Assembly (NCBI RefSeq): GCF_016903815.1
Contig: NZ_CP069973.1
DNA length: 64,000 nucleotides
Origin: Escherichia coli
Lineage (GTDB): Bacteria > Pseudomonadota > Gammaproteobacteria > Enterobacterales > Enterobacteriaceae
Strand: one strand, 5' to 3'
Made by a program: the position numbers and the translations under genes. Under the pieces are notes generated by a model. That model saw only the letters and a list, made by a program, of their open reading frames with translations. It was not told the DNA's origin and did no database searches. Shown here in pieces: positions 5,924-25,212 of this stretch; within the stretch, counting starts at the first letter, position 1; each line of letters starts with the position of its first letter.

Positions 5924-5933
5924 TAATAAATAT

Positions 5934-5957
5934 CCTCCGGCATAGCCGGAGGTTTTT
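5934..5957 (+). terminator. Putative rho-independent terminator after yfeW (could alternatively lie inside the right end of the IS200-like element)
   Basis: Stem cctccggc / gccggagg with 3-nt loop followed by TTTTT, 10 nt after yfeW stop. Confidence 0.55.
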
Positions 5958-6033
5958 CAAATGCGCCTATAAGGCTCTCTTACCAGCCGCGCCCTAACAG
6001 GCGCACACGATCTGACATTTGCATCCAACTTCG

Positions 6034-6492: not shown

Positions 6493-6632
6493 TGGGACCC
6501 CCTTTTGATTTCTTGTTTGACACTTGCAGTTGCCAGACCGCAAGGTGTTTTAACAAATCAAAAGGGGTTTTAATAACTGGCTTAAAGCTGAAAGCTTTCC
6601 GGAACCCCCAGCCTAGCTGGGGGTTTTCTGTG

Positions 6633-6668
6633 CACAAAAAGGCCAGTCAGTTGTGATACTGGCTGGCC
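6633..6668 (-). terminator. Putative rho-independent terminator after yfeX
   Basis: Minus-strand hairpin ggccagccagt...actgactggcc followed by TTTTTGTG, about 25 nt after yfeX stop. Confidence 0.6.
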
Positions 6669-6691
6669 TTAAATCATCGAATCAGAAACGA

Positions 6692-7675
<984 letters not shown>

Positions 7676-7686
7676 TCAGACGCAAA

Positions 7687-8262
7687 TTAACGCCGCCAGA
7701 TAATTTTACTGACTTTCCAGTTTTTCAGGGTATCGTCCGAAGGCATTAACCCTTCAGGACCACTCCATTCCCCGCTGAACTGGTAGCTAATATGTTGACT
7801 GCCTTCGGCTTTACATTCGACGGCACGATTATCATCACCATCAGCTTTTTGGCAATTGCCAAATGCTTTGCTGTAAAGGTCGCTAAACGGTGTACCGATT
7901 TTAACACTGGAGTCAGCTGGAATATCGCTATCCAGCACATCAATGCGGCTGATCGTGCCCTGATCGCCGTTAATCACCATCGCCACGTTGTCGCCTTTCA
8001 TCACTTCAAAAAAGCGCACCACGTTGCCGTTCGCGGTTTTCATTCCGCTGCGCAGGCGATAATCGCCATCAAGCGCATCAGCAATGGCTTGTTCTTGCAG
8101 TGGTGTGGACGCCGTTAATTCACCAACGCCCTGCTCGCTCACTTTGGTGGACGACCCAAACCAGTTCCACGGGTTAGCGGCAGACCAGTTAACTGACGAC
8201 ATCGTGGAACAGCCGGTCAGCATCAACGGCATAGCGCATAACATTAAACGCAGCGATATCAT
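7687..8262 (-). CDS. yfeY: Lipoprotein YfeY (191 aa)
   Basis: ORF track 7687..8262; lipobox LTGC in signal peptide. Confidence 0.88.
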   Translation of the reverse strand: MISLRLMLCAMPLMLTGCSTMSSVNWSAANPWNWFGSSTKVSEQGVGELTASTPLQEQAIADALDGDYRLRSGMKTANGNVVRFFEVMKGDNVAMVINGDQGTISRIDVLDSDIPADSSVKIGTPFSDLYSKAFGNCQKADGDDNRAVECKAEGSQHISYQFSGEWSGPEGLMPSDDTLKNWKVSKIIWRR

Positions 8263-8322
8263 GTCACTTCCTTTGGTTATTCAATAACGTTGCTTGGAGT
8301 GCAAATTCACCAAAAAGTGCCG

Positions 8323-8772
8323 TTATTCTTTTTCTTCATTAAAACAAGCGCGTAAACGTCGATTGGTCAGCAGCCAGATTAACGCCACAATATCCGCCAC
8401 TACCAGCGCCAGCCCGATACCGCTAACGGATTAACCGTTCAGCCACAGCCACGGTTGCCAGCAAAGTAAAACCACCTGCGCCAACAGCAACAGAAAATAG
8501 AGCACATGCCAGATACGGGGAAATGAAGCCCGCCGACCACTCAGCAAAAACGCCAGCACCGCCGGAATGCCGGGAATCAACCCCAGCCAGAAATTATCGT
8601 GATCGGGATAAAACAGATTTAGCAGTGCAGTACCCTGCTCGCGCGACGCACCGGCAATGACAAACAGCACCCAGGTTCGCGCCTGAAGCAATAGCACAAG
8701 CCAGAAGAGCAAGGGTAAACGCAGGCGACCGTGCGCATCATAATGGACAGGATGAAACTCAGTACTCTTCAT
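8323..8772 (-). pseudogene. yfeZ: Inner-membrane protein YfeZ interrupted by an in-frame TAA (stop at 8431-8433); 35 further sense codons continue in frame to a second stop at 8323-8325
   Basis: ORF track 8431..8778 (115 aa) ends ...CWQPWLWLNG*; the next in-frame codons read SVSGIGLALVVADIVALIWLLTNRRLRACFNEEKE*, which matches the recalled C-terminus of the ~149-aa K-12 protein (GAA to TAA at one position). Confidence 0.6.
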
Positions 8773-9184
8773 CTTCAATCAAACGCTTACCCAAACTCAG
8801 CACGTCGGCGTGTTCATATCCCAGGCGTTCATACATTCCGAGCACCATGTCGTTATCTTCCGGCACGTTGATCTGAATTTTCGGGCAGCCGCGAGCAATC
8901 AGCTTTTTCTCCAACCGATTAAGCAACGCATTGGCAATCCCACGCCCACGAAACTCTGGATGCACGCCAAGATAATAAGCAGACCCGCGATGCCCGTCAT
9001 AACCGCCCATCACCGTTCCGACCACTTCACCGTTTACCTCAGCGACCAGAAACAAACTGACGTCATGGTTCATCTTACGCTCGATGTCCATTTCCGGATC
9101 GTTCCACGGACGCAGCAAGTCGCAACGCTCCCAAAGGGTGATGACCTCTTCGAAATCTTCCTGGCGAAATACGCGTATCTCCAT
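8759..9184 (-). CDS. ypeA: GNAT-family acetyltransferase YpeA (141 aa)
   Basis: ORF track 8759..9295; start trimmed to ATG 9182-9184 ([11 protein letters not shown]...); 3' end overlaps yfeZ start. Confidence 0.88.
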
Positions 9185-9397
9185 GGTATTCGTTACCTTT
9201 TTGCGGGTTAAAAGGCTGATTATGGCGTGAACGGTCGAATTAGCCAATATCTGACGAAAATCGGTTGAAAAAGTGGCATAATGGGGAGTTGTCAACTATT
9301 GAAATGAAAAGTAAAACAATTCTCATCAGCAAACGGTCGTAACGGATTACGCGATACGATATAACATCTGGAACTTTATTATTACAACTCAGGCCGT

Positions 9398-10267
9398 ATG
9401 AGCACTTTTAAACCACTAAAAACACTCACTTCGCGCCGCCAGGTGCTGAAAGCCGGTTTGGCTGCCCTGACGTTGTCAGGAATGTCGCAAGCCATCGCCA
9501 AAGACGAACCTTTAAAAACCAGCAACGGACACAGCAAGCCGAAAGCCAAAAAATCTGGCGGCAAACGTGTCGTTGTTCTCGATCCAGGCCACGGAGGGAT
9601 TGATACCGGAGCGATCGGACGCAACGGTTCGAAAGAAAAACATGTGGTGCTGGCGATTGCTAAAAACGTCCGTTCCATTTTGCGTAATCATGGCATTGAT
9701 GCGCGTTTAACGCGTTCTGGCGATACGTTTATCCCACTATACGATCGCGTTGAAATCGCCCATAAACATGGCGCAGATCTGTTTATGTCAATTCATGCCG
9801 ACGGCTTTACCAACCCGAAAGCTGCCGGTGCTTCGGTATTTGCCCTCTCTAACCGTGGGGCAAGTAGCGCAATGGCGAAATACCTGTCTGAACGCGAAAA
9901 CCGCGCCGATGAAGTTGCTGGTAAAAAGGCGACTGACAAGGATCACCTATTGCAGCAAGTGCTGTTTGATCTGGTGCAAACCGATACTATTAAAAACAGC
10001 CTGACGCTCGGCTCGCATATTCTGAAGAAGATTAAGCCGGTGCATAAACTGCACAGCCGCAACACCGAACAAGCCGCGTTTGTGGTGTTGAAGTCGCCGT
10101 CGGTTCCTTCGGTGCTGGTGGAAACTTCGTTTATCACCAACCCGGAAGAAGAGCGGCTGTTAGGCACGGCGGCATTTCGCCAGAAAATCGCCACAGCGAT
10201 TGCCGAAGGCGTGATCAGTTTTTTCCACTGGTTTGACAACCAGAAAGCACACTCGAGAAAGCGGTAA
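9398..10267 (+). CDS. amiA: N-acetylmuramoyl-L-alanine amidase AmiA (289 aa, Tat signal)
   Basis: ORF track 9398..10267; twin-arginine motif SRRQVLK in signal peptide. Confidence 0.93.
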   Translation: MSTFKPLKTLTSRRQVLKAGLAALTLSGMSQAIAKDEPLKTSNGHSKPKAKKSGGKRVVVLDPGHGGIDTGAIGRNGSKEKHVVLAIAKNVRSILRNHGIDARLTRSGDTFIPLYDRVEIAHKHGADLFMSIHADGFTNPKAAGASVFALSNRGASSAMAKYLSERENRADEVAGKKATDKDHLLQQVLFDLVQTDTIKNSLTLGSHILKKIKPVHKLHSRNTEQAAFVVLKSPSVPSVLVETSFITNPEEERLLGTAAFRQKIATAIAEGVISFFHWFDNQKAHSRKR

Positions 10268-11170
<903 letters not shown>

Positions 11171-11175
11171 CTCCC

Positions 11176-12228
11176 TCACCCCCATTCCCGCATCCGCTGA
11201 TGCAACGTCAACGACGGCTTCTCGGCAAACAGCTGCTGGTAATCCGTGGCAAATTGCCCCAGATGCCAGAATCCCCACTGCATGGCGGCGTCTTTTACCG
11301 TTGTGCTTTGCGACCACGGGCTTATCAGTTCGCGGCGTACGGCGTTCAGGCGAATGCGTTTCAGCCACGCGTTCGGGCCAATGCCTAAAATAGCGTGAAA
11401 CGCGTTTTGTAGCGTGCGGCGACTGACATGCAGTTGATTACACAAGTCCAGCACCGTCACCGGTTCGGACATGTTTTCCAGCACATATTCACGGGCGCGG
11501 GAAAGTAATCTACGGTAACTCTGATGACTGATGCTTTCCGCCGTCACCATTGGCTGCGCTTCTTCCAGCATCGCCCCCATCGCCATGAGCAAATTATCCC
11601 CCAGCACTTTTCGCACCGCAGGCTGATGCAAATTCTCGGGATTCTCGCAAAACGTCGCCAGCGCCTGTTGGACAAAGCCCCACAGCGCGGCTTTATGCTG
11701 TTCTTTCACTTCCAGCGCCGACTGGCTACGCAGCATATGTAATACCCGATCCGGATTATGCAAAAAGTTAGCCTGACGGGTGATGACATCTTCAGAAAGC
11801 ACTACGCCCAGGATCGTGTAATCGTCCGGCGTACTTAATTCAAACTCGGTTCCACCAGGGCGCGTCGCTATTTCTGCGCTTCCCAGACATTGCGAACCGA
11901 TAAATCCCTGCTCACCGCGCGTCGCCGGAATGCCAAACCAGAACGAGTTCGGCCAGACCAGGCACGACTGACGCAGCGCCAGACCGGTGTATTCACGAAA
12001 AACCTGAATATCATCGAGTAGAATTTCCGTAAATTCACCATGAAACTTGCCCGGATGCAGCTGATCGTAAATCTGCTGCCAGGCGGTAATCGTCAAAGCA
12101 TGTTCATAGACATCCGTTGTCTGTCGTTGATGAACATTATCCACTTCGACCTTCGGCGTGAGCTTCAGGTTTTCGGGTAAGGGTTCATGATAAAGATGGT
12201 GCAAATTGGCTGTACGGGTCTTTTTCAT
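11176..12228 (-). CDS. eutR: AraC-family activator of the eut operon, EutR (350 aa)
   Basis: ORF track 11176..12228; C-terminal AraC-type HTH; last gene of eut cluster. Confidence 0.93.
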
Positions 12229-12273
12229 GATGTTAATGCCGGGTGTTGTAGGACACCCGGCACCTCCGACAGG

Positions 12274-12774
12274 TTAATGGGGCTTGAGACGATAACGACT
12301 ACTGCGTTTACGTAACGTCCCGGCAGAAAAGAGCTGTTCGAGCGCATTTCTGGCTTTTTCCAGCGGCCAGCCAAAGTGGGCAGCCACTTCTCCTGCCGTC
12401 ATTCCCTGACGTACTGATGTTAACAGCGCCAACAACTCGTCAGCAGATTCCACGACGATAACTGGCGCGTCGGGTTCCTTTACGGGTTGCTTCGGCTGGC
12501 GGTTAAAGCCAGTAACCAGCCACTGGGTGTCATCGTCTGGCCGACCGATCTCCTTACGGCTGATGACACGCCCGGTACGCATCGCGGCAGCACAACCTGC
12601 GTCCAGCGCCGCACGACACGCCGCCAGATCGCCTTCCACCACCAGCGTTAGGCGACCAGGGTCAAGCACTTCGTGACTGAGCAGACGAACGTTAGCTGCT
12701 TTGAGCATGGCATCCGCTGCATCTATCGCGGCGACCATGCCGTCCACTTCCAGCAATCCCAGTGCATTGATCAT
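12274..12774 (-). CDS. eutK: Microcompartment shell protein EutK (BMC domain plus C-terminal nucleic-acid-binding-like domain, 166 aa)
   Basis: ORF track 12274..12780 (TTG-initiated call); ATG at 12772-12774 with GGAGG SD gives MINALGLLEVDGMVAA... Confidence 0.9.
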   Translation of the reverse strand: MINALGLLEVDGMVAAIDAADAMLKAANVRLLSHEVLDPGRLTLVVEGDLAACRAALDAGCAAAMRTGRVISRKEIGRPDDDTQWLVTGFNRQPKQPVKEPDAPVIVVESADELLALLTSVRQGMTAGEVAAHFGWPLEKARNALEQLFSAGTLRKRSSRYRLKPH

Positions 12775-12786
12775 CGGCAACCTCCG

Positions 12787-13446
12787 TTACGCACGCTGGA
12801 TTGGATTACGCGCGATTTCCAGCACTGCATCGGTAAAAGCGTTACAGGCTGCTTTACACGCGGCCTGGCTACCGGTTAAAAATGCTGCCGAGTAGTTGGT
12901 TTCAGACGGCGGCGGGACATAGGTCACCAGCTGCACGTCGGCAGATTTCAACGCCGCATCAATGCCGTAGGTCGCTTCCAGCGGCGGTGCCACCAGATAC
13001 GCCATCGGATCGCCAAGCGTGATCCCGGCGGTTGATGAGAGATAAGAACCGGTACGCGAAACTACATGTGCCAGGAAAGCTGTGTTTTCTGCGTCATTAG
13101 CCCACTGGAAAGCCGCGCCATTTTCAATATGCGCAACCATCGCATCCAGACCAGCACGCACTTCCGCCGGGTTTGGCCCACCGAGCATAATCAGCACTTC
13201 ACCGGCAGTCGGTGACGGTCCGTGTGCAGCTCCCGCATACAGCGAGCGGCCATACACCACTTCGACCATCGCCTGCTTGGTCGCTTCGTCAGCCGCAATG
13301 TAGGTGACGTCATCGGAATCAGCAGAAATCAGCCCAAGGCTACGAATATGCGGCGGCAATTTCAGTTCACGCGCAAATTCGGCGTTAACAGAGGCAATCA
13401 CCCGCATGGCGGTGACCGACGGTCGAATCAAATCTAAAGCTGGCAT
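12787..13446 (-). CDS. eutL: Microcompartment shell protein EutL (tandem BMC domain, 219 aa)
   Basis: ORF track 12787..13446. Confidence 0.93.
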
Positions 13447-13455
13447 GATGCCTCC

Positions 13456-14343
13456 TTATCGGGTCATGTTGATGCCGGATGCTTTCTGCTCCAGCATACG
13501 TTTCGCCAAATCCACAATGACGGCTGCGGCTTCAACCGGCGGCGTGCCGCCCTGGTGAATGTTAGAGATACAGGTACGGTCGGCCTCAACGGTGGTTGCC
13601 ATACGCGGCGAGTAAACGGCGTAGCAGGAGAGGCTTTCTGACTGCCCTAATCCCGGGCGTTCCCCCACCAGTAGGATCACTACTTTCGCGCCGAGGATCT
13701 CACCGATCTGATCTTCAATCTTCACGCGACCATAACGAACAAAGAATGGCGTACCGACTTTCAGCCCGGCCTGTTTCAGGCCCGCCATCAGCGGTGGCAG
13801 GATCTCTTCGTAGTTCACGGTGATCGCATCAGTTGACAGGCCATCAGAAATAACGACCTGTACGTCCGGATTAGCAACACACTGTGCTTTCAGCGCTTCA
13901 ACAGCTTCTGCACACAGGCGGCGGCCCATATCCGGACGAGTCAGGTAAAGATTTTTGTCGCTAATTTCAGAGCGGACTTCCAGCAAGCCCTGCGCTTTCA
14001 CCCACTCTTCCGGCACTTCTTTCAGTACGGTATCTTTCGAACGAGAGTGATCGGCCAGGAAACGCAGCAACGCCTGGGTACGCGGACGCGGACCGGCACG
14101 ACCGGTACAAACGCGGGCCACGGTGCTGCGACGCAGTTCTGTTAACACATCCGCACGATGTGGGTTTTCCACACCAATCCACGCTTTTGCTTCCGCAGAG
14201 CCTAAATCCAGCGCGCAGCTTTCCGAGGTCACTGGTGTCGTACAGGTGGTGGTGGCGCACTTTGCTTCTGACGGCGCGGGGGCCGCTTGTCCCATTGACG
14301 CCATCACGCTGCGTACAATTTCTTCAATCTGTTTTTGATCCAT
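13456..14343 (-). CDS. eutC: Ethanolamine ammonia-lyase small subunit EutC (295 aa)
   Basis: ORF track 13456..14343. Confidence 0.93.
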
Positions 14344-14363
14344 GATGTGTTATCTCCGCGTCA

Positions 14364-15725
14364 TCAGAAGAACAGTGACGGATCGCCCGCCCATTTGGTC
14401 AGGCGACCGTTTGCCATAATGCCCATGCTTTCCAGCCAGCGTTCAAACTCCGGTGACGGGCGCAGGTTGAGTAACTGACGCACAGTGGCAGTGTCGTGGA
14501 ATGCTGTGGTCTGATAGTTGAGCATGATGTCATCGCCCAGCGGCATCCCCATGATGTAGTTGCAGCCTGCGGTGGCGAGCAGGATCATGAGGTTTTCGTT
14601 GAGGTTCTGGTCAGCGTCAGCGTGGTTGGTGTAGCAGCAGTCACAGCCCATAGAGATGCCGCTCAGCTTACCCATAAAGTGATCTTCTAAGCCCGCACGG
14701 ATAATCTGGCGGTCGTTGTAGAGATACTCCGGCCCAATAAAGCCGACCACGGTGTTGACGATAAACGGATCGTAATGACGCGCCAGCCCGTAGTTACGCG
14801 CTTCCATCGTCACCTGGTCTGCGCCGAAGTTAGCGCCAGCAGACAGCGCCGAACCTTGTCCGGTTTCGAAGTAGAGGCAGTTTTCCCCGGCGATACGATT
14901 GAACTCTGCGCCCACTGCGCGCGCTTCGTCGAGCATCGCCAGCTCCACGCCAAATTCTTTCAGCCCTTTTTCGCTGCCGCAGATACTCTGGAAAATCAGC
15001 CCGCCTGGTGCGCCACGACGGATCGCTTCAATCTGGGTGGTGACGTGCGCCAGCACGCAGCCCTGAGTTGGGATGTTGAATTTGTCGATCACGCCGTAGA
15101 TGGTGTCCAGCACGCGGCTTAAGTTTTCCACGTCGTCCGTCACCGGGTTGACGCCGATCACCGCATCGCCCACCCCGAAGGAAAGCCCTTCGTAGATTTG
15201 CGCAGCGATACTTTGCACGTCGTCACGGGTGTCATTTGGCTGCAAACGGGCGCTGAAGGTGCCCGGAATACCGATGGTGGTATTGGCCTTTTTGATTACC
15301 GGCATTTTCTTCGCGCCGTAGATCAGGTCCGCGTTGGAGCAAATCTTCGCCACCGCCGCGACCACTTCCGAGGTCAACCCTTTGCGGGTAAAGGCAATGT
15401 CGTCCACGCTGGTTTCATCGCTCAGCACATACTCACGCAGTTCGCTGATGCTCCAGTTTTTAATCTGGTTGTAGGCCGTTTCGTTAACATCGTCCTGAAT
15501 CAGCCGCGTCACACAGTCATCTTCATAGGCAATCACCGGATTATTGCGGATGTCCGCTACGGTCATTTCCGACAACACCTGCTTTGCCGCCACGCGCTCC
15601 TGTGAGCTTGCCGCTGCAACGCCCGCCAGCACATCCCCCGAACGCAGTTCGTTGGCTTTAGCCAGCACCTCTTTTACATCCTTAAACTGATATACATTGC
15701 CGAACAATGTGGTCTTTAGTTTCAT
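14364..15725 (-). CDS. eutB: Ethanolamine ammonia-lyase large subunit EutB (453 aa)
   Basis: ORF track 14364..15725; start 11 nt downstream of eutA stop. Confidence 0.95.
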   Translation of the reverse strand: MKLKTTLFGNVYQFKDVKEVLAKANELRSGDVLAGVAAASSQERVAAKQVLSEMTVADIRNNPVIAYEDDCVTRLIQDDVNETAYNQIKNWSISELREYVLSDETSVDDIAFTRKGLTSEVVAAVAKICSNADLIYGAKKMPVIKKANTTIGIPGTFSARLQPNDTRDDVQSIAAQIYEGLSFGVGDAVIGVNPVTDDVENLSRVLDTIYGVIDKFNIPTQGCVLAHVTTQIEAIRRGAPGGLIFQSICGSEKGLKEFGVELAMLDEARAVGAEFNRIAGENCLYFETGQGSALSAGANFGADQVTMEARNYGLARHYDPFIVNTVVGFIGPEYLYNDRQIIRAGLEDHFMGKLSGISMGCDCCYTNHADADQNLNENLMILLATAGCNYIMGMPLGDDIMLNYQTTAFHDTATVRQLLNLRPSPEFERWLESMGIMANGRLTKWAGDPSLFF

Positions 15726-15736
15726 AAGTCGTTCCC

Positions 15737-17140
15737 TCAGGAAGGAAATGCGAGTGATTTCACCGTCACCGGCACAACCGATCCGCCAAAAAGAGGCGTA
15801 CCAATGTCGATATAGTCCCCCGCGCGGACAATCACTTCGTCAATGACTGCCAACGGGAGTTGTTGTAGCTGTGGGCGCAACAACATGCCCAGAGCTTTAC
15901 CAAAGTCCTGCCCGGCCACCACCAGCAGGGGATGCGGATTCGGAAAACGCGCGACGAAATCGACCAGCGCGTTGATGACCGTCAGTACCGCGGCGTAACG
16001 CACAGGCAGCGAGGCGGGAAGCGCCAGCACGTACGCGTCAGAATTGGGATCAAGATCCAGCTGAATCAGCGCCTGTTGCCAGGCACTCACCAGATCCGTT
16101 TCATCAATTGGGATCGCCACCGGCAAATTGCGCAGCGGCAGTTGTACGCCCTCCAGCCAGATTGTGCTGCCAGAGAGCGAAAGGGTATGTGCACCCGCGC
16201 CAATCACCGTGGCGCGTACGGTTTGCGCCGGAAACTGCACGTTCATCTCACGCAGGCGCGGATGGTCATGCAGCGCCGTTGCCAGAAGCGGGCCAATATC
16301 GGCAAAACAGAACGGGTCGGCGGGCTGGTGGCGATAACATTCGCCCACGCCGCCAGAAAGCGTAATGATTTCGGGCGTAACACCTGCGGGCAGCAAACCG
16401 GTTTGCATCAATGCCTGCGCGAGCGGCGAGAGCGTTCCGTCAATCACTTCGACAATCAGCTCTGCCATCCGCCGGGTAACCTGCACCAGCTGCGCGCCGG
16501 TCAGCGAACGGGCGTCGGTGCCTGCGCCGAAGCACTCATCCACAATCATCTGCCCCGGTTTATGAGCGTAAACCACGCGCCCCTGGCTGTCGGTTTCCAG
16601 CAGGCGACCACCGACGTTGAGGCAGGCAGTGCCGCTGATTTTTCCGGCATCGAACAGGGCGTAGTTCGCGGTGCCACCGCCGATGTCGATATTCAGTACC
16701 CGACACAGCCGTTGTTCAGAAAGGGTTTGCGCCCCGGCACCGTGACCGGCGATCACGGATTCGAGATGCGGCCCGGCGCTGGCGACGACAAAATCGCCCA
16801 GCGACTGGGAGAGCGTCATCACCGCCGGGCGAGCGTTGCGGGTTTTCGCGCTTTCACCGGTGATGATGATGGCACCAGAATCAACGCTTTCCGGCGCAAT
16901 GCCCGCAGCCTGATATTGCTCGAGGATTAAGGTTTTCAGTTCCGCTTCTTTTAAACCACCCTGTTTATCGACAGGGGTAAAGAACACCGGGCTTTGCCAG
17001 CTAATTTCGCGTTTGATGAATTCGTAGCGCGGCACCTGCGACACCGCCGCACGGTTAACCAGCTCCAGGTGGGAGAAGATCACCTGGGTGGTGGTGGTGC
17101 CGATATCGATACCGACGCTCAGTAGCTGGCGAGTGTTCAC
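15737..17140 (-). CDS. eutA: Ethanolamine ammonia-lyase reactivase EutA (467 aa)
   Basis: ORF track 15737..17140; GTG start overlapping eutH stop (GTGA). Confidence 0.93.
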   Translation of the reverse strand: MNTRQLLSVGIDIGTTTTQVIFSHLELVNRAAVSQVPRYEFIKREISWQSPVFFTPVDKQGGLKEAELKTLILEQYQAAGIAPESVDSGAIIITGESAKTRNARPAVMTLSQSLGDFVVASAGPHLESVIAGHGAGAQTLSEQRLCRVLNIDIGGGTANYALFDAGKISGTACLNVGGRLLETDSQGRVVYAHKPGQMIVDECFGAGTDARSLTGAQLVQVTRRMAELIVEVIDGTLSPLAQALMQTGLLPAGVTPEIITLSGGVGECYRHQPADPFCFADIGPLLATALHDHPRLREMNVQFPAQTVRATVIGAGAHTLSLSGSTIWLEGVQLPLRNLPVAIPIDETDLVSAWQQALIQLDLDPNSDAYVLALPASLPVRYAAVLTVINALVDFVARFPNPHPLLVVAGQDFGKALGMLLRPQLQQLPLAVIDEVIVRAGDYIDIGTPLFGGSVVPVTVKSLAFPS

Positions 17141-18363
17141 GATTGTGCCTCCGCTTCGGTTTTAGCCGCGGTCGCGTCTTCTTTTGGCACCAGCATCATC
17201 GCCACGCCAATCGCCGTTACGCCGCCGATCAATTTGCCGACAATCATCGGGAAAATCATGGCGTTCATGTTGGCAGCGGCGAAGCCTAAGTGGTCGCCCA
17301 GGGCGAAAGCAGCGGAAACGGCGAAGGCGCAGTTGATCACTTTGCCGCGGGTATCCATCTGCTTCATCATGCCAAACATCGGGATGTTGTTGGCAAGCGT
17401 TGCCACCATGCCGGCTGCCGCGATGTTGTTCATATTCAGCACTTTACCGACGCTCATCAGCGGTTTTTCAAACCAGCGGGTCAGCAGCAGTACCATCGGG
17501 TACGCCCCTAACAGAACGCAGGAGATAGAACCGATAACTTCAATGGCGCGCATCACTTCACCGGGTTTGTCGCCAGGGGCCATAAAGATAGGATCCAGAC
17601 CGGGAATCAGTTCCCAGCCAAGGAGGAATTTCACTACCGCGGCAGCAAGACCGAGGGTGATCAATGCAACGAGGAATTTGGCGAAGATCTGGAAGCCGTT
17701 GATCATTTTTTCCGGGATGAATTTCAGCCCCAGCGCCACCAGCACCGCAACGATAAGTACCGGGATCATGTTCATCAGGATCAGCGCAAAGGTGAATTCC
17801 ACCGGCTGACCGTTGATCTGCACACCGGAGTACATAGCAACCAGACCACCAGCAATACAGCCAATCGGAATGGTCACAATGCCCGCCAGCACGCCGAGCG
17901 CCAGATAACGACGGTCAGAAGGTTCGATAATGCCGAGCGCCACCGGAATGGAAAACACAATCGTTGGCCCCATCATCGACCCGAGAATTAACCCAGAGTA
18001 TAGCCACGCTGCTACGTCGCCGCCCGCCAGCTCTTTGGCGAGGAAGAAGCCGCCCATATCGCACGCCAGCAGTGTTCCGGCGAACATCGATGGGTTAGCG
18101 CCGAGCATTTCGTAAACCGGGATAATCACCGGTCCGAGTACGTGGGCCAGAACAGGTGCCAGCGCGGTCATACCAACCATCGCCAGGCCCAGTGCGCCCA
18201 TTGCCATAAAGCCTTCTTCGAACTGCCCGCCGGATCCTTCGATACTTTTACCGAACTTACCGAGGAAACGAGCAGAACCGCCGAACTGCGACAGGATCCT
18301 GTCTACGGCAGCTATCAGCATAAAGAACATCATGATGTACATGATGATTTCGTTAATTCCCAT
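17137..18363 (-). CDS. eutH: Ethanolamine permease/facilitator EutH (408 aa, polytopic membrane protein)
   Basis: ORF track 17137..18363; strongly hydrophobic throughout. Confidence 0.93.
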   Translation of the reverse strand: MGINEIIMYIMMFFMLIAAVDRILSQFGGSARFLGKFGKSIEGSGGQFEEGFMAMGALGLAMVGMTALAPVLAHVLGPVIIPVYEMLGANPSMFAGTLLACDMGGFFLAKELAGGDVAAWLYSGLILGSMMGPTIVFSIPVALGIIEPSDRRYLALGVLAGIVTIPIGCIAGGLVAMYSGVQINGQPVEFTFALILMNMIPVLIVAVLVALGLKFIPEKMINGFQIFAKFLVALITLGLAAAVVKFLLGWELIPGLDPIFMAPGDKPGEVMRAIEVIGSISCVLLGAYPMVLLLTRWFEKPLMSVGKVLNMNNIAAAGMVATLANNIPMFGMMKQMDTRGKVINCAFAVSAAFALGDHLGFAAANMNAMIFPMIVGKLIGGVTAIGVAMMLVPKEDATAAKTEAEAQS

Positions 18364-18417
18364 CGCCTTTACTCCCTGTTAGTTGTTATTTATTGCCAAT
18401 GCTGAAAGTGGGTTTTT

Positions 18418-18533
18418 CCCTCACTCTGGAAGCCGAGGGGCCGGGGTGAGGGTAATTGTTTGCACCGGCGCGACTCTGTTCCCCTCACCCTAACCCTCTC
18501 CCCAAAGGGGCGAGGGGACTGTCCGTACACTTT
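18418..18533. repeat. Composite GC-rich palindromic intergenic repeat in the eutG-eutH spacer; core unit 18477-18533 has a second copy at 31870-31927; family name not confidently assigned
   Basis: Core tgttcccctcaccctaaccctctccccaaaggggcgaggggactgtccgt recurs almost identically at 31870-31927; upstream related palindrome ccctcac...gtgaggg at 18418-18452. Confidence 0.75.
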
Positions 18534-19720
18534 TATTGCGCCGCTGCGTACAGGCCGACAATCTGCTCCAGGCTGGCGGTACGCGGGTTGCTGCGCAGAC
18601 AAATATCTTCCAGCGCGGCCTGCGCCCATGCACCGTAATGCGCAGATGTCGCACCAATATCGCCCAGTCGTTTACCAATCCCGACTTCCGCAATCAGCTC
18701 ACTTACCGCGTTAATAGCGTCACGATCGTCGGATTTTTTAGTTCGCAGCGCCCGACCAATCTGACTAAAGCGTTCACGACAAACCATCCGGTTAAATTCC
18801 ATCACCGTTGGCAACAACATGGCGTTCGCCAGACCGTGCGGAATATGCAGCGCCGCCCCCGGCTGATGCGCCATCGCGTGGCATAACCCAAGCCCCGCAC
18901 TGGAAAACGCCATTCCCGCCATGCATGAAGCCAGCAACATGCTCTCGCGCGCGGCAAGGTCATGACCGTAGCCCACCGCTTTCGGCAGTGATTTACCAAT
19001 CATCGCGATTGCGCCAATCGCCAGACTGTCGGTAAACGGTGTGGCGTTCAGCGCGCTGTACGCTTCAATAGCATGGGTTAACGCGTCGATACCGGTCATC
19101 GCCGTGACATGCGACGGCACGCCTTCGGTCAGCGCAGCGTCGAGAATCGCCACATCCGGCATCAGCGAGGCGTGGGCTAACACCTGCTTGCGCCCGCTCA
19201 CCGCGTCGATAATCACCGTTACGTTGGTGGTTTCAGAACCGGTTCCGGCGGTCGTTGGAATGGCAATCAACGGCAGGCGCGGTTGCAGAACGCTGGTTTC
19301 TGACATTTCTGCCAGCGTGCTATCCGGGTTTGTCACCAGCAACGCCACGGCTTTCGCCGCATCCAGCACCGAGCCGCCGCCAAACGCGATCACCCCGTCA
19401 CAACCTGATTCACGCAACTGCGCCACGGCTGCACACACGTCGGTGATGCACGGTTCGCCCACCGGACATGGCCAGAGCGTCATGGCGATACCTTTAACGG
19501 CCAGGCTACGCGTCAGCCCGGCGGTCATCCCCGCCTGATGCAAAAAGCTGTCTGCCATCACGAACAGATGTTTCAGCCCACGCGTTTGCGCTTGCTGCCC
19601 GCAACTGCTCATCGCGCCCGGACCGCAAAGCGTCACCGGTGGAACGCTAAATGTTTTTACCCGTTGCAGATTCAGGGTATCGAACGCCTGAAAGAGCGCG
19701 GTCTGCAATTCATTTTGCAT
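18533..19720 (-). CDS. eutG: Iron-containing alcohol dehydrogenase EutG (395 aa)
   Basis: ORF track 18533..19720. Confidence 0.93.
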   Translation of the reverse strand: MQNELQTALFQAFDTLNLQRVKTFSVPPVTLCGPGAMSSCGQQAQTRGLKHLFVMADSFLHQAGMTAGLTRSLAVKGIAMTLWPCPVGEPCITDVCAAVAQLRESGCDGVIAFGGGSVLDAAKAVALLVTNPDSTLAEMSETSVLQPRLPLIAIPTTAGTGSETTNVTVIIDAVSGRKQVLAHASLMPDVAILDAALTEGVPSHVTAMTGIDALTHAIEAYSALNATPFTDSLAIGAIAMIGKSLPKAVGYGHDLAARESMLLASCMAGMAFSSAGLGLCHAMAHQPGAALHIPHGLANAMLLPTVMEFNRMVCRERFSQIGRALRTKKSDDRDAINAVSELIAEVGIGKRLGDIGATSAHYGAWAQAALEDICLRSNPRTASLEQIVGLYAAAQ

Positions 19721-20546
19721 AGATCCCCTCCGCTTTCTCTCGCCCGCTACTGGCGATCGCCAGCGGGGTCATAAACAAACTGTGCTGCGGTAAATGCACC
19801 TGTAACGCCGGGAATTGTTTGCAAAACAGTTCCGCAACGCCCGGTTGCATACAGGAGCCGCCCGCCAGCCATAAATCAGTAATGCCCTGCCCTTCAATAT
19901 GCCGGGCGACAATGTCCGCCATTTTTTCGTACACCGGTTTCACCGCGGGCCAAATCTCTTCACCGTGACCGCGCTTGTACTGCTCCGCCTCTTCCAGCGA
20001 AATACGGCGATTTCCGGCGAGAGTCAGAGAGATATGATGTCCGCCGGTGGCTTCATCTGCCGAGTAAGTCACCTTGCCCTTTTTCACGATGGCAATGCCG
20101 GTGGTGCCGCCGCCGATATCCACTACACCGGCGTTGTCCAGTTGCAGCAGATCCGCGACTGCGGTTGGCTCATCCAGCACATGGCTCACTTCCAGCCCGG
20201 CAGACTCCAGCACGTTGATGGAAATACGCGGGTCCGTACCTGGAGGAAAAGAGGTCGCCGCATGGCTAAAACGGCGACCGAATTGCTGCTCGAGGGTGTC
20301 GAGATGGCGACGAACAATGGTGACCGCACCGAAGAAATCCCAGACGATGCCGTCGCGGACCACATCAGCCCAGTCGAGGCATACCGCCACCGGCTGACCG
20401 TCGCGGTCAACAACCATCGACACCACATCGCAGGTGCCCAGATCCACCCCCAGCCACAGCGGAGATTCCGTCGCGGCAGGCGTCTGGTTACACAGCGTTG
20501 CTGCTATGTGCAGACGTGGGGTGAGCCATTGTTCGTCGTGCGCCAT
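19710..20546 (-). CDS. eutJ: Hsp70/actin-fold chaperone-like protein EutJ (278 aa)
   Basis: ORF track 19710..20546; overlaps eutG start by 11 nt. Confidence 0.93.
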   Translation of the reverse strand: MAHDEQWLTPRLHIAATLCNQTPAATESPLWLGVDLGTCDVVSMVVDRDGQPVAVCLDWADVVRDGIVWDFFGAVTIVRRHLDTLEQQFGRRFSHAATSFPPGTDPRISINVLESAGLEVSHVLDEPTAVADLLQLDNAGVVDIGGGTTGIAIVKKGKVTYSADEATGGHHISLTLAGNRRISLEEAEQYKRGHGEEIWPAVKPVYEKMADIVARHIEGQGITDLWLAGGSCMQPGVAELFCKQFPALQVHLPQHSLFMTPLAIASSGREKAEGIYAK

Positions 20547-20556
20547 CTGTTACTCC

Positions 20557-21960
20557 TTAAACAATGCGAAACGCATCGACTAATACACAGCGACGCAGAC
20601 GGACAAACGTCCGCGCGCTGGTTACCCCTTCACCGGTTGGCGTGGTGATGGTCATGGTGGTCCAGCCTTCCCCGCCCAGCCCCAGCCCGGCAATACACGG
20701 TCCGTTCTTAACGAAAATGCTGGTATCAATGGCATTCGCCATCTGGTTCATGTTTTCGATGTTGCGCGAGTGCATTGCCGCCGTGTGATGGCAACCGCCT
20801 TCCAGTTTCACCGCCAGCGCAATGGCATCCGCCACGTTGGCGACGCGCACGACGGGCAGCACCGGCATCATCAGTTCAGTCACAGCAAACGGATGTTCTG
20901 CGGTGGTTTCTACAAACAGCAGTCGCGTTTGTTCCGGAACTTTAAGGCCGATTGCCGCCGCGATTTTCGCCGCATCGCGACCAACCCAGTCACGGCTGAC
21001 GGTGCCTTTTCCGCGCTCGTCGATATTTTTCAGCAACACCGGTTGCAGCTGCTGCGCCTGCTCTGCGGTCAGTTTCACCGCGTGCTGGCCTTCCATCAGA
21101 CGCATCAGTTCATCGGCTACGCTATCCACAACAATCAGTACCTTTTCGTCGGCACAAATGATGTTGTTATCGAAAGACGCGCCTTTGACGATGGACTGAG
21201 CAGCACGGGCGAGGTCAGCGGTTTCATCCACCACTACCGGCGGGTTGCCAGCGCCTGCGGCAATCAGACGTTTATTGGTGTGTTTACGCGCCGCTTCTAC
21301 TACCGCTTCGCCGCCGGTCACCACCAGCAGGCCGATGCCCGGAAACTTGAACAAACGTTGAGCGGTTTCGATATCCGGATTTGCCACAGTAACCAGTAAG
21401 TTTTCCGGCCCGCCTGCGGCAACAATCGCCTGGTTGAGCAGCGTAATCGCCCGCTGGGAGACTTTTTTCGCCGCCGGATGCGGGGCAAAAATGACGCTGT
21501 TGCCCGCGGCAATCAGGCTTATGGCGTTATTAATTACGGTTGCCGCCGGGTTGGTGGACGGAGTTACCGAAGCCACCACGCCCCAGGGCGCGTTTTCAAT
21601 TAAAGTCAGGCCGTTGTCGCCAGTCAGCACCTGCGGAGAGAGGCACTCAACGCCCGGTGTGCCGCGCGCCTGAGCAACGTTTTTGGCAAATTTATCTTCG
21701 ACGCGGCCCATGCCGGTTTCACTGACGGCAAGCTCCGCTAAATCTCTGGCGTGTTTTTCGCCTGCTTCACGAATGGCAGCAATGGCTAACTGGCGCATTG
21801 CCACGCTCTTTAACCCTTGCTGGGCAATTTTGGCTGCCGCAACGGCGTCATCCAGGGACGCGAAAACGCCCATCTCATGAACGGCGGCGGGCGGCGTATC
21901 ACTGCTTTGCATTTTCAGCAGTACCGCTTTCACCACCTGTTCAATATCCTGTTGATTCAT
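20557..21960 (-). CDS. eutE: CoA-acylating acetaldehyde dehydrogenase EutE (467 aa)
   Basis: ORF track 20557..21960. Confidence 0.93.
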   Translation of the reverse strand: MNQQDIEQVVKAVLLKMQSSDTPPAAVHEMGVFASLDDAVAAAKIAQQGLKSVAMRQLAIAAIREAGEKHARDLAELAVSETGMGRVEDKFAKNVAQARGTPGVECLSPQVLTGDNGLTLIENAPWGVVASVTPSTNPAATVINNAISLIAAGNSVIFAPHPAAKKVSQRAITLLNQAIVAAGGPENLLVTVANPDIETAQRLFKFPGIGLLVVTGGEAVVEAARKHTNKRLIAAGAGNPPVVVDETADLARAAQSIVKGASFDNNIICADEKVLIVVDSVADELMRLMEGQHAVKLTAEQAQQLQPVLLKNIDERGKGTVSRDWVGRDAAKIAAAIGLKVPEQTRLLFVETTAEHPFAVTELMMPVLPVVRVANVADAIALAVKLEGGCHHTAAMHSRNIENMNQMANAIDTSIFVKNGPCIAGLGLGGEGWTTMTITTPTGEGVTSARTFVRLRRCVLVDAFRIV

Positions 21961-21971
21961 GATGTTCTGCC

Positions 21972-22259
21972 TTATTTGTGGAAAATTACCTGACCGCCAG
22001 ACACCACCTCATCGACAATGCCAATCACGCACAGATCGACCGGTGACGTTTCGCTTTTATGCGCCTGGCGGGCGGAACTGCCACTCACCAGCAACACCCA
22101 CTCCCCGGTTCCCGCGCCAATATTGTCGATGGCGACGGCGCATTGCCCGTCAGGATTACCTTGTGGATCAATCATTTCCACCATCAGCAATTTGTCATGC
22201 GCCAGTCCGTGATGGCGTACGGTACAAACAATTTGTCCAGTGACGACTGCCAGTTTCAT
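21972..22259 (-). CDS. eutN: Microcompartment vertex protein EutN (95 aa)
   Basis: ORF track 21972..22259; GGAGG SD upstream. Confidence 0.93.
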   Translation of the reverse strand: MKLAVVTGQIVCTVRHHGLAHDKLLMVEMIDPQGNPDGQCAVAIDNIGAGTGEWVLLVSGSSARQAHKSETSPVDLCVIGIVDEVVSGGQVIFHK

Positions 22260-22365
22260 ACCCGCCTCCGTGGCGTATTTCAGGTAAAAGCTCCCCCTAC
22301 CCTCCGCGGAAGGTAAACTGAAAAAGGAGAGAGCGTGACGCCCGAATCGACGTCACACAGGGTGA

Positions 22366-22659
22366 TTACAGGTTGCTGCTATCGCCTTTCAGGCCGATCG
22401 GGAAGACTTCTTCCAGGTCGCCGTGCGGACGCGGGATAACGTGTACAGATACCAGCTCGCCGATACGCTGTGCCGCGGCGGCACCTGCGTCGGTCGCGGC
22501 TTTACAGGCTGCAACATCACCACGAACCATGGCAGTACACAGGCCGCCGCCAATCTGCTTAACACCAACCAGCTTGACGCGCGCAGCTTTCACCATCGCG
22601 TCAGAAGCCTCAATCAGTGCAACCAGGCCCCGGGTTTCGATCATTCCTAATGCTTCCAT
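22366..22659 (-). CDS. eutM: Major microcompartment shell protein EutM (BMC domain, 97 aa)
   Basis: ORF track 22366..22701; start trimmed to ATG 22657-22659 ([26 protein letters not shown]...) with GAGGAAA SD. Confidence 0.92.
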
Positions 22660-22697
22660 TGTGCTTTCCTCTTTATCAGGGTCCAGAACGGGACCGT

Positions 22698-23714
22698 TCA
22701 TTCAACCAGTGTTTGTAAACTGCTTTCGCGGTTCACTTCTGTCTGACGCGGCACAGCTGCCACCAGCGCCAGCTCGATAATTTCCTGCACGCTACAACCA
22801 CGAGAGAGATCGTGCATCGGCGCGGCAAGCCCTTGTATCAATGGCCCGACGGCACGATATCCGCCGAGTCGTTGTGCGATTTTGTAGCCAATATTTCCGG
22901 CTTCCAGCGACGGAAAAACCATCACATTGGCCTTGCCTTGTAGCGGGCTGGCAGGCGCTTTTTGCGCCGCCACTTCCGGCACGAAGGCGGCGTCAAACTG
23001 CAACTCGCCATCCACCACCAGCTTCGGTGCGCGCTCACGGACGATTTCTGTCGCCTGCTGGACGTTGGCAACGCAGGGGTGACGGGCACTACCGTTGCTG
23101 GAAAACGACAGCATCGCCACGCGCGGTTCTTCTCCGGTGATGGCGCGCCAGGTTTCGGCGCTGGCAAGCGCGATATCCGCCAGTTGCGCCGCCGTCGGCT
23201 GTGGCACTACGCTGCAATCGGCAAAGCCCAATGCGGGGCCACTGTACTGTGGCAGCATCAGGAAAATGGAGGAGAGCGTTTTACAGCCTGGCTGTAAGCC
23301 AATAATGCGTAATCCGGCACGCAGCACATTCGCCGTGGAAGAGAGATTGCCCGCGATACAGACATCCGCTGTCCCGGCGCTGACCATTGCGGCAGCGAAC
23401 ATCAGCGGATCGGTGAGTTTTTCCAACGCATCCGGCGGCGTTTTTTCGCCCGCACGGGCCAGCCAGCGGAGAGCAAATTCTTCCCGCATTGCGAGGTTGC
23501 CATGCGGATCTATCACCTGTAGCCCGTCCATCGCCACGCCGTGACTGAGCGCAAACTGACGAAGTTCAAACGGATTGGCGACCAGAATGGGCGTTGCCAG
23601 ACCTTGTTGATGTAAATATTGCGCGGCTTTCAGCACACGTTGATCTAACGCATCCGGAAAAACCACTCTGGCGGGCGCTCGCAACGCCAGTTCACGACAA
23701 CGTTCAATAATCAT
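22698..23714 (-). CDS. eutD: Phosphotransacetylase EutD (338 aa)
   Basis: ORF track 22698..23714. Confidence 0.93.
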
Positions 23715-24514
23715 TGCGTTTCCCCCAGTCGTTGTTGGATCTGCTTCACCGTTAGCGGCTGCTTCGTTACGCTCAGGATCATCATCACGTAGACCGTGCT
23801 CGAAAGGCGGTTCAGCGCCTGCAAGATGTCCGGGCGTAATACTTCAAAACTGCGGGTTATAAACACCTGCGCCGCTACGGTTTCGGTTTCCCGCACTTTG
23901 GTGCGTAGCAGATTGAGTAACGCCGCATCGCGCCCGTGGCTGGCTTCCGGCACCAGATGATCGTGACCAAGATAGCGCAGCGGCTGATGAGAAAGCCGAT
24001 GCAGATCTTCGTCAGAAAGCCCGACAATCGCTTGGCAGGCCAGCGGTTCCCCCAGCGCATCGGCGCGCATAATGTTGCCAAGACGCGAGCGGATGTCCGC
24101 CAGCCACGGCTGCCACGGTTCCGCCAGTTCAATTTGCAGCCACACTGCCAGCGCAATGGTGCTGTCGAGAACCGCGCGAAAACCCAGACGCGGATCGCTT
24201 TTGGCGACCATTTTTTCCGCCGACAGGTGAGTCAGCGTGTCCGGCTTTTTCGCCACCGGCTGGCGGCACAGTTCGCAGCACGCCTGCCGATGTTCATCAC
24301 TACTGGTCAGCCCGTGAACGGGCTGCGGCTGCTGCTGTTCATCGTCAACAAACAGGCGGCCCTGCTCGTCAATAAACTTGATGCGCAGATGGCGGCTTTC
24401 CAGCAACTCCCGGGCAGAGGGCGTCAGGCGACTGTCCGCAGGGAGATGGATCTCTGCGCCTTCGCTAAGCGTATGATTCGCTCTTAGCCATGCTTCGGTG
24501 ATGAAATCTTTCAT
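23711..24514 (-). CDS. eutT: Cob(I)alamin adenosyltransferase EutT (267 aa)
   Basis: ORF track 23711..24514; 4-nt overlaps with both neighbours. Confidence 0.92.
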
Positions 24515-25212
24515 AGGGATTGCCAGTTAGCCGGCCAGGCGACATACAGGAATTTCACGCTGGATGTCGTACCAAATTCGATGCTGGAGCCTTTCGGGAT
24601 AAACATTACGTCGCCTGCTTTGGCGATCATGGTTTCGCCTTCGTGGCGAACATGCAGCTCCCCTTCCAGCACCATGTCGATTTCGTCGTAGTTCAGGGTC
24701 CACGGGAAGAATGCGTTCTCCCACTGCATAAAACCGGCGGCCATGCTGCTGCCGTCGTCTCCGGTCACAAGATCAGTCAAGCCCACGCAATGCGGCTCTG
24801 CGCCGTCGAAACGACCAAACTTGACGCTGCTGCCATCAATAACTTTGATGCCGCCTTTGCCGGTCACCGATTTGAAACTCGGCTGCATTGCACCCTGCTC
24901 CAGTGACTGTTTTTCCTTCATCACTTTTTCCATCAGCTGCGCGACCAGGCTTTCGGTAAACTGGCCTTCCGGTAGCTGGGCGATGATGGTTTCGCGGATA
25001 CGCTGGCTTTCGGTTTTATCGGCTGGCACGCAGGCGGGAACGGACGCCGTTACCGGGGTCGATTCATCACATTCAGTGATGGTAAAACCCAGTAGATCTG
25101 CCACTTCACGGGCTTCCGGGGTAATAATGCTGGCGCGCAGAACCACGGACATTGCCTGTTCGCCGCGCGCGTGTGCTTCACGAATATCATTCGCTGTGAT
25201 GAGTTTTTTCAC
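24511..25212 (-). CDS. eutQ: Cupin-fold protein EutQ (233 aa)
   Basis: ORF track 24511..25212. Confidence 0.92.
   Translation of the reverse strand: MKKLITANDIREAHARGEQAMSVVLRASIITPEAREVADLLGFTITECDESTPVTASVPACVPADKTESQRIRETIIAQLPEGQFTESLVAQLMEKVMKEKQSLEQGAMQPSFKSVTGKGGIKVIDGSSVKFGRFDGAEPHCVGLTDLVTGDDGSSMAAGFMQWENAFFPWTLNYDEIDMVLEGELHVRHEGETMIAKAGDVMFIPKGSSIEFGTTSSVKFLYVAWPANWQSL

Follow-up and report, generated by a model that had tools for sequence, protein, structure and literature searches.

The window analysed here, a stretch of 64,000 nucleotides from Escherichia coli, can be said with high confidence to hold the complete, uninterrupted ethanolamine-utilisation (eut) operon of a non-K-12 strain, in which the eutA/eutB junction represents an empty chromosomal attachment site for small IntZ tyrosine integrase islands. 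The operon comprises 17 genes, eutSPQTDMNEJGHABCLKR, which run co-directionally and in the canonical order from 26014 down to 11176, with inter-gene gaps of -26 to +169 nt, and all of them are intact. The features of the locus, in the direction of transcription, are the following:

26015..26306, minus strand: maeB-eutS intergenic region, with the terminator-like hairpin of maeB (26262..26289) and the putative main ethanolamine/B12-induced promoter
25679..26014, minus strand: eutS, microcompartment shell protein, first gene (NF012012; 111 aa, 111/111 identical to MG1655)
25187..25666, minus strand: eutP (NF012011; 159 aa, 155/159 identical to MG1655)
24511..25212, minus strand: eutQ (NF012001; 233 aa)
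23711..24514, minus strand: eutT, corrinoid adenosyltransferase (NF011595; 267 aa)
22698..23714, minus strand: eutD, phosphotransacetylase (NF007233; 338 aa)
22366..22659, minus strand: eutM, shell protein (NF012018; 97 aa, identical to MG1655)
21972..22259, minus strand: eutN, shell vertex protein (NF011992; 95 aa, identical to MG1655)
20557..21960, minus strand: eutE, acetaldehyde dehydrogenase (NF011927; 467 aa)
19710..20546, minus strand: eutJ (NF011660; 278 aa)
18533..19720, minus strand: eutG, alcohol dehydrogenase (NF011998; 395 aa)
18364..18532, minus strand: eutG-eutH intergenic region, with a G+C-rich dispersed repeat
17137..18363, minus strand: eutH, ethanolamine permease (NF011665; 408 aa)
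15737..17140, minus strand: eutA, ethanolamine ammonia-lyase reactivase (NF007991, 1070 bits, full length; 467 aa, 459/467 identical to MG1655)
15626..15820, minus strand: block of raised nucleotide conservation, running from the 3' end of eutA through the spacer into the 5' end of eutB
14364..15725, minus strand: eutB, ethanolamine ammonia-lyase large subunit (NF011649, 663 bits; 453 aa, 452/453 identical to MG1655)
13456..14343, minus strand: eutC, ethanolamine ammonia-lyase small subunit (NF003971; 295 aa)
12787..13446, minus strand: eutL, shell protein (NF011934; 219 aa)
12274..12774, minus strand: eutK, shell protein (NF012010; 166 aa)
11176..12228, minus strand: eutR, AraC-family activator, last gene (NF007522, 790 bits; 350 aa, 347/350 identical to MG1655)

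All 17 Eut proteins match NCBIfam equivalog or subfamily models end to end and above the curated cut-offs, and none of the 17 genes contains an internal stop or a frameshift. Both subunits of the ethanolamine ammonia-lyase score above the cut-offs of their models (663 bits for EutB and 340 bits for EutC), the five shell proteins EutS, EutM, EutN, EutL, and EutK match theirs, and EutR is covered over 350/350 positions. Judged by its genes, the locus has the gene set of an EUT1-type ethanolamine-utilisation microcompartment. Every gene has the same length as in MG1655, with amino-acid identities of 98-100%; where the proteins are not identical, they show 1-8 amino-acid differences from the K-12 versions, whose function has been demonstrated. 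The original prediction described a contiguous 17-gene cluster with ORFs of the expected length, and eutA and eutB as neighbours separated by 11 bp and no prophage. The former is borne out by these lengths and by the lack of internal stops, and for the latter the ORF list and the sequence give exactly the same coordinates.

At the junction, eutA, whose GTG start overlaps the stop codon of eutH by 4 nt, and eutB, which starts with ATG (both according to the ORF list), are separated by an 11-nt spacer (15726..15736, minus strand), GGGAACGACTT, which holds most of the eutB Shine-Dalgarno sequence. The junction reads ...TTC CTT CCT TGA GGGAACGACTT ATG AAA..., with the Shine-Dalgarno-like GAGGGAA overlapping the stop codon of eutA. 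No integrase or phage genes lie between eutA and eutB, where only these 11 nt are found, nor elsewhere in the window, judging by the annotation of the corresponding region of strain 7/2. The sequence TCAGGAAG, which consists of the eutA stop codon and the last codons of this gene (15737..15744, unstranded), occurs once at the junction, and no second copy bracketing foreign DNA was seen in the junction alignments. Because TCAGGAAG is present only once, the attachment site is empty.

This site is occupied in MG1655, where the annotation agrees with the original prediction: CPZ-55, a cryptic prophage of 6,790 bp (2558691..2565480) with intZ and yffL to yffS, lies between eutB (b2441) and eutA (b2451), and is flanked by an 8-bp duplication of TCAGGAAG, where the crossover occurs. 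MG1655 and BW25113, in both of which CPZ-55 interrupts the operon, hold all 17 eut genes, with lengths identical to those of the window and 98-100% protein identity; the difference is that MG1655 carries these 6,790 bp, on the opposite strand, after the eutA stop codon, whereas the site is empty in the window. In occupied strains, the island is placed exactly after the eutA stop codon, with duplicated TCAGGAAG at its ends and its genes on the strand opposite to eut. IntZ-type islands other than CPZ-55 are found at the same site in ~200 natural isolates (about 4% of complete genomes), and three of them use an identical TCAGGAAG crossover according to the junction alignments. Examples are the islands of CV839-06, EC-107, 14EC033, and U71 (PMC6652756), which insert at the site unoccupied in the window; such islands are roughly 9-12 kb long, and hold differing cargo and an integrase with ~82-86% DNA identity to intZ. 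The same insertion site and the 8-bp duplication have been described previously (PMC6379469), and the eutA/eutB site has been called a 'prophage insertion hot spot', in an operon that is conserved in 47/47 UPEC (PMC6652756).

CPZ-55 was also the basis on which the strain had been predicted not to be a K-12 derivative. The expectation that K-12 has eutA and eutB apart stood for MG1655, but not for the W3110 reference, in which both genes are directly adjacent and the junction is identical to that of the window over the 81 nt compared. In addition, ER2796 lost CPZ-55 by precise excision, and XL1-Blue does not hold it (PMC4444293, PMC11148124). Because W3110, ER2796, and XL1-Blue all lack CPZ-55, its absence does not exclude K-12, and the original reasoning is invalid on its own; the conclusion that the strain is not K-12 at this locus is nevertheless borne out by the sequence identity. 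Aligned over >20 kb, the operon region shares only 96.8-97.2% identity with MG1655 and W3110, which corresponds to ~3% nucleotide divergence, and near-identity (~100%) to either strain was not found across the region. By contrast, a single base distinguishes positions 1..50000 of the window from strain 7/2, a Swedish faecal isolate, and the operon is identical or near-identical in human isolates such as strains 222, 103, and 7/2. The existence of an identical junction in some K-12 strains would also suit a K-12 derivative that, like W3110, does not hold CPZ-55. However, the identity values, the one-base distance to a faecal isolate, and the presence of an IS200C copy and of a differing eutG-eutH spacer, neither of them found in K-12, leave practically no probability for such an origin, which can be regarded as already refuted by sequence divergence. 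Due to the ~3% nucleotide difference from MG1655 and the match to human isolates such as 7/2, the window is assigned to a non-K-12 strain. Full CPZ-55, for its part, was found in 213 genomes, and those in the sampled rows all bear the names of K-12-type laboratory stocks or derivatives, whatever their host field. The window and MG1655 also share their flanking chromosomal genes. Extra DNA that seemed to lie between murR and murQ was an artefact, traced to an ORF that had been called too long; this region is collinear with K-12.

The contiguous junction is found in 4,961 of the 5,426 complete E. coli genomes (about 91%). In other species and metagenomes, the arrangement of eutA stop codon, 11 nt, and eutB ATG was found in 41/41 loci from at least eight enterobacterial genera, which comprise 35 species genomes retrieved with an EutB N-terminus pattern and six contigs found independently through EutA homologues. 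The spacer sequence is invariant in 39 of these 41 loci, and carries a single C>T change in the remaining two. Within E. coli, identity to the window over eutA-eutB reaches 99% or more in 156 genomes, and each of the best 30 of these 156 matches aligns unbroken over 100% of the query. The contiguity in 4,961/5,426 E. coli genomes and in 41/41 other loci agrees with the claim of an ancestral arrangement, and indicates that the contiguous junction is the common and ancestral state in E. coli. An IntZ-type island might instead have been present once in the lineage and have left by precise excision. This is what happened to CPZ-55 in ER2796, and the island is also missing from XL1-Blue (PMC4444293, PMC11148124); moreover, the W3110 junction is identical to that of the window, and therefore excision is scarless, so that a never-occupied site and a precisely restored one have the same sequence. 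However, all close relatives are contiguous (the 156 genomes, the best 30 of them in a single piece), and, as the site is empty in ~91% of E. coli and in 41/41 loci of other species, parsimony favours a site that was never occupied. A secondary origin of the empty site is accordingly very improbable, and a never-occupied site is the preferred explanation.

Within the operon, conservation is, in addition, highest at the eutA/eutB junction. The block around it shows a synonymous-codon identity of 0.97-0.99, versus 0.69 over eutA and eutB, and holds the 45-nt windows with the highest conservation in about 10 kb of the operon. These first conservation estimates came from loci selected by an exact match to residues 1-18 of EutB. 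In the six loci found independently via EutA, the block is 87-98% identical, versus 74-87% for its flanks, and its eutB side varies at synonymous sites. Because of this variation in independent loci, a stronger claim of near-invariance across genera was toned down. One tentative and rather unlikely explanation is that ~120-190 nt of this block constitute a conserved cis-acting element, in which a hairpin would make the translation of eutB depend mainly on the ribosome terminating at eutA, and whose constraint would offer the IntZ island family a stable, genus-spanning attachment site. If so, an insertion would cut eutB off from transcription and from translational coupling alike. The raised conservation is consistent with this idea, with no structural signal accompanying it. 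The minimum free energy (MFE) fold does predict a 7-bp hairpin in the block (UUUCCUU/GAGGGAA), where the eutB Shine-Dalgarno sequence pairs with the last eutA codons. However, when 181 nt and 101 nt at the junction were folded, the MFE structures proved no more stable than those of shuffled sequences (z = -0.05 and +0.27), RNAalifold and pair counts detected no covariation there, as the block shows hardly any variation, and the predicted structure shifts with the boundaries chosen. RNA structure was rejected as evidence at the junction on the basis of these z-scores near 0 and the lack of covariation. No Rfam match was obtained at the junction even at E <= 10, and STnc490, which lies within the IS200 copy, was the sole match across the entire window. 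A hidden overlapping gene was also set aside as the cause of the synonymous constraint: the ORFs that cross the block are all short, such as an antisense one of 49 aa, and none of them matches its extent. Similarly, a consensus scan found no internal promoter in the eutA 3' end and one site in 15.4 kb, fewer than in shuffled sequences, and searching the literature for such a promoter brought up nothing beyond unrelated work on ectoine.

Regarding function, the eut operons of Nissle 1917, UPEC, and K-12 W3110 hold the same 17 genes as the window, in the same order and strand, with adjacent eutA and eutB and an 11-nt spacer, although that of W3110 shows ~3% nucleotide divergence and a different eutG-eutH repeat. 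Function has been established experimentally for those strains (PMC11334477, PMC7617246, PMC6652756). BW25113 does not use ethanolamine, but once the prophage has been scarlessly removed it again grows with ethanolamine as a nitrogen source (PMC11334477). In BW25113 itself, eutB is not induced and microcompartments are not formed, while Nissle 1917, with an uninterrupted operon, exhibits both (PMC7617246). The intact ORFs, together with the growth restored in BW25113 by removal of the prophage and the microcompartments of Nissle 1917, indicate that the arrangement in the window is probably functional; with B12 provided, ethanolamine would be expected to serve the strain at least as a source of nitrogen.

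In Salmonella enterica, eutG-eutH-eutA-eutB-eutC follow the same order, with eutA and eutB also 11 nt apart, and EutA shows ~90% protein identity to that of the window. The regulation of eut and its use for carbon acquisition have been mainly worked out in Salmonella. The E. coli locus equals that of LT2 in gene content (PMC11334477). In the mechanism proposed for the window, a single transcript initiated at the promoter ahead of eutS would run through eutA into eutBCLKR; the site holds one TCAGGAAG, and therefore read-through from eutA into eutBCLKR would be possible. The translation of eutB would then start from the Shine-Dalgarno sequence overlapping the stop codon of eutA. Based on established knowledge and published experiments, EutR is expected to turn on the operon in the presence of ethanolamine and adenosylcobalamin. 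Likewise, EutBC would cleave ethanolamine into acetaldehyde and ammonia inside the shell formed by EutS, EutM, EutN, EutL, and EutK, with EutA reactivating the lyase, and EutE, EutD, and EutG presumably processing the acetaldehyde.

The position of the main promoter is taken from Salmonella and E. coli literature, as summarised in a figure legend (PMC7617246, Fig. 1). The maeB-eutS region has a mean column identity of 97% to MG1655, and the ~125 nt adjoining eutS are invariant, while several positions differ from K-12 in the distal half. In the eutG-eutH spacer, alignment to MG1655 and CV839-06 places the repeat where K-12 has two REP copies. A 23-mer of this repeat has a second copy at 31874..31896, and the spacer arrangement is shared by 303 of the 5,426 complete E. 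coli genomes. These substitutions in the distal promoter region, the eutG-eutH element that differs from K-12, and the 1-8 substitutions per protein could point to an operon that is structurally intact but silent or impaired, be it by amino-acid changes, by promoter differences, or by polarity from the repeat; commensals also vary in their use of ethanolamine as a carbon source, according to surveys cited in PMC7617246. Nevertheless, the scan predicted no terminator-like site between eutG and eutH, the 17 genes are free of frameshifts and stops, and the same alleles are found unchanged in many clinical isolates, which is not expected for a decaying locus. Decay is seen, by contrast, in island-bearing strains, as in 14EC033, where eutS to eutA are deleted, and in EC-107, where eutR is frameshifted; neither lesion is present in the window. 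An impaired operon is therefore unlikely, and a working one is preferred.

An unbroken operon with an empty site is no new finding, having already been documented as the normal condition of most E. coli. The locus represents the standard, probably working ethanolamine operon of wild-type (clinical or commensal) E. coli, and matters little beyond annotation. The presence or absence of CPZ-55 is an unreliable marker to separate K-12 from non-K-12 strains, and interruption of the site is not unique to K-12, as natural isolates amounting to ~4% of complete genomes carry other islands there. The use of ethanolamine by these bacteria is relevant to their fitness in the gut and the urinary tract.

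The eut operon of the window comprises 17 genes recognised by NCBIfam models, arranged as eutS-P-Q-T-D-M-N-E-J-G-H-A-B-C-L-K-R from 26014 down to 11176. All 17 match their MG1655 counterparts in length and share 98-100% protein identity with them, none of the 17 contains an internal stop, and neighbouring genes overlap by up to 26 nt or stand at most 169 nt apart, the widest interval being the eutG-eutH spacer. The contiguous cluster with ORFs of the expected length described in the original prediction is thus borne out, and its coordinates and description of the eutA/eutB boundary are exact:

14364..15725, minus strand: eutB (453 aa, ATG start)
15726..15736, minus strand: eutA-eutB spacer (11 nt)
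15737..17140, minus strand: eutA (467 aa, GTG start)
15737..15744: the 8-mer TCAGGAAG, covering the eutA stop codon and the last eutA codons

The junction between the two genes reads ...TTCCTTCC TGA GGGAACGACTT ATG AAA..., with a Shine-Dalgarno-like motif (GAGGGAA) overlapping the eutA stop codon.

In MG1655, this junction is occupied by the element recorded as "cryptic prophage CPZ-55" (2558691..2565480; 6,790 bp), located between eutB (b2441) and eutA (b2451); its genes, intZ and yffL to yffS, run in the opposite direction to eut. The alignment blocks between the window and MG1655 break precisely at the eutA/eutB junction, and a base-level comparison places TCAGGAAG at both ends of CPZ-55 and in a single copy in the window, confirming the location that had been stated for the MG1655 prophage. 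This crossover agrees with the published description, in which CPZ-55 integrates directly behind the eutA stop codon and the 8 bp TCAGGAAG are duplicated (PMC6379469). The window holds an intact eut operon with an empty attachment site.

The same statement fails, however, for K-12 as a whole. W3110 (NC_007779.1; locus L006, 9127..9137) has no CPZ-55, its eutA and eutB are separated only by an 11-nt spacer like that of the window, and its junction is identical to that of the window across the 81 nt compared. CPZ-55 has also been lost from ER2796 through precise excision, and is missing from XL1-Blue (PMC4444293, PMC11148124). Since these three strains lack the prophage, its absence does not prove a non-K-12 origin, and CPZ-55 is an unreliable K-12 marker. 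The conclusion that the strain is not a K-12 derivative stands, although not by the reasoning from the missing prophage, because the window is only 96.8-97.2% identical to MG1655 and W3110. Strain 7/2, isolated from human faeces in Sweden, differs from it at a single base in 50,000, and a 3.4-kb test segment shows full identity to six other human isolates.

Two further features lie outside the operon. A single-base difference from strain 7/2 at 8431..8433 creates a premature stop (E114*) in yfeZ (8323..8772, minus strand), leaving 113 of its 149 codons; because six strains with complete genomes (222, 103, 5283, 98210, 98192, and 98224) share this allele, it represents a real sub-clade marker rather than a sequencing error. 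In addition, an IS200C copy absent from K-12 (6034..6625) is located between pbp4b (yfeW) and yfeX, and a 3.4-kb probe including it (5900..9300) is at least 80% covered in 181 of 5,426 complete genomes:

6034..6492, minus strand: IS200C tnpA
6502..6625: STnc490 RNA element, IS200C 5' region

A 300-bp probe shows an unbroken eutA/eutB junction in 4,961 of the 5,426 complete E. coli genomes and an interrupted or deleted one in about 8.5%, which fits the published figure of 8% (PMC6379469). Full-length CPZ-55 is present at ≥99% identity in 213 genomes, and the carriers sampled are all named as K-12-type laboratory stocks or derivatives, although the host given for a few is human or pig. In about 200 other genomes the match, of 80-90% identity, is confined to the integrase end. 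The three inspected among them, 14EC033 (L004), EC-107 (L042), and CV839-06 (L043), are natural isolates, each with an IntZ-family island of its own (roughly 9-12 kb) at the identical TCAGGAAG crossover, in keeping with the "prophage insertion hot spot" described in UPEC and with the prophage of strain U71, reported there as novel (PMC6652756). The loss of the eutS-to-eutA half of the operon in 14EC033, next to an IS1 copy, and the frameshifted eutR of EC-107, which also has gadC, murI, and IS elements as extra cargo, suggest that splitting of the eut operon is followed by its decay.

A degenerate pattern for EutB residues 1-18 retrieved 35 species genomes from Citrobacter, Klebsiella, Salmonella, Escherichia, Yokenella, Pluralibacter, Pseudocitrobacter, and Intestinirhabdus, in all of which a EutA homologue ends 11 nt ahead of the eutB ATG. 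The same spacing is found in 6/6 further contigs, one from Salmonella enterica, that were located independently by way of their EutA homologues (78-90% identity). For these enterobacteria the contiguous state is therefore the ancestral one, as had been proposed.

Early stops break the eutA and/or eutB frames in the species-representative assemblies of Citrobacter amalonaticus (L025), Klebsiella michiganensis (L028), and Citrobacter koseri (L039), which may reflect assembly errors or pseudogenes; these loci were excluded from the codon analysis. Some database E. coli "EutA" proteins combine EutH and EutA domains (P0002, P0009-P0012, P0063; 674-763 aa) or EutA and EutB domains (P0093/P0094; 792 aa); frameshifts or gene-calling errors, where eutH and eutA overlap by 4 nt and at the 11-nt eutA/eutB spacer, are the probable origin of these fusions.

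Across genera, the most conserved nucleotide stretch of the operon, synonymous sites included, surrounds the junction:

about 15626..15820, minus strand: conserved block (eutA 3' end, spacer, and eutB 5' end)

Aligned by codon, 16 sequences show a synonymous-codon identity of 0.97-0.99 between ~27 codons ahead of the eutA stop and ~17 codons into eutB, compared to 0.69 averaged over eutA and eutB, part of the eutB-side signal being due to the choice of the first locus set via the EutB N-terminus. Nucleotide alignments of about 10 kb give 0.99-1.0 identity for the 45-nt windows at the junction versus a mean of 0.82, followed by peaks at the eutH start and the eutB/eutC boundary. Because of that selection, the test was repeated on the six independently located loci, where the block is 87-98% identical versus 74-87% for the flanks, with a nearly invariant eutA side (-60..-1) and a eutB side that varies at synonymous sites. 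Among E. coli genomes, 5,058 match the 300-bp junction probe at ≥99% identity, and only 156 match the whole 2.8-kb eutA-eutB segment at that level. Fold z-scores near 0, with neither an Rfam match nor covariation, give no indication of an RNA element at the junction. A predicted 7-bp hairpin, in which GAGGGAA pairs with UUUCCUU from the final eutA codons, would mask the eutB Shine-Dalgarno and be compatible with translational coupling as a hypothesis. Integrases generally use conserved targets, and the location of the integrase core inside the block fits this habit.

From established knowledge of eut and published work, EutR would activate the promoter upstream of eutS in response to ethanolamine and adenosylcobalamin, with a weak internal promoter keeping up eutR expression (PMC7617246, Fig. 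1 legend). Ethanolamine imported via EutH would be split by EutBC, using the cofactor from EutT, within a shell of EutS, M, N, L, and K, with EutA reactivating the lyase and EutE, EutD, and EutG processing acetaldehyde. K-12 strain BW25113, where the insert is present, resembles a Δeut strain in behaviour, and once the insert is scarlessly removed it again grows with ethanolamine as its nitrogen source (PMC11334477); with the insert in place, BW25113 induces eutS and eutR but not eutB, and microcompartments are absent (PMC7617246). These experiments argue that the window's arrangement is the working one and, together with the intact ORFs, support its predicted functionality; the operon is probably functional in this strain. 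Function could be affected mainly by the small number of amino-acid substitutions relative to K-12, by distal promoter differences, and by a different eutG-eutH repeat.

The eutG-eutH spacer (18364..18532) contains a G+C-rich dispersed repeat (GGGGAGAGGGTTAGGGTGAGGGG and its inverted partner), whereas that of K-12 holds two REP copies and that of CV839-06 one. The 23-mer of this repeat recurs without change at 31874..31896, downstream of tkt; the window's spacer version occurs in 303 of 5,426 genomes, and no terminator-like site is predicted in it.

The whole finding is already in the literature: the MG1655 insertion and where precisely it lies, the fact that most E. coli lack it, the status of the site as a hot spot, and what the insertion does to function. 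The uninterrupted eut operon is a correct but ordinary finding. Only two points are added: the nucleotide conservation at the eutA/eutB junction is unusually strong, and the absence of CPZ-55 does not discriminate K-12 from other E. coli.
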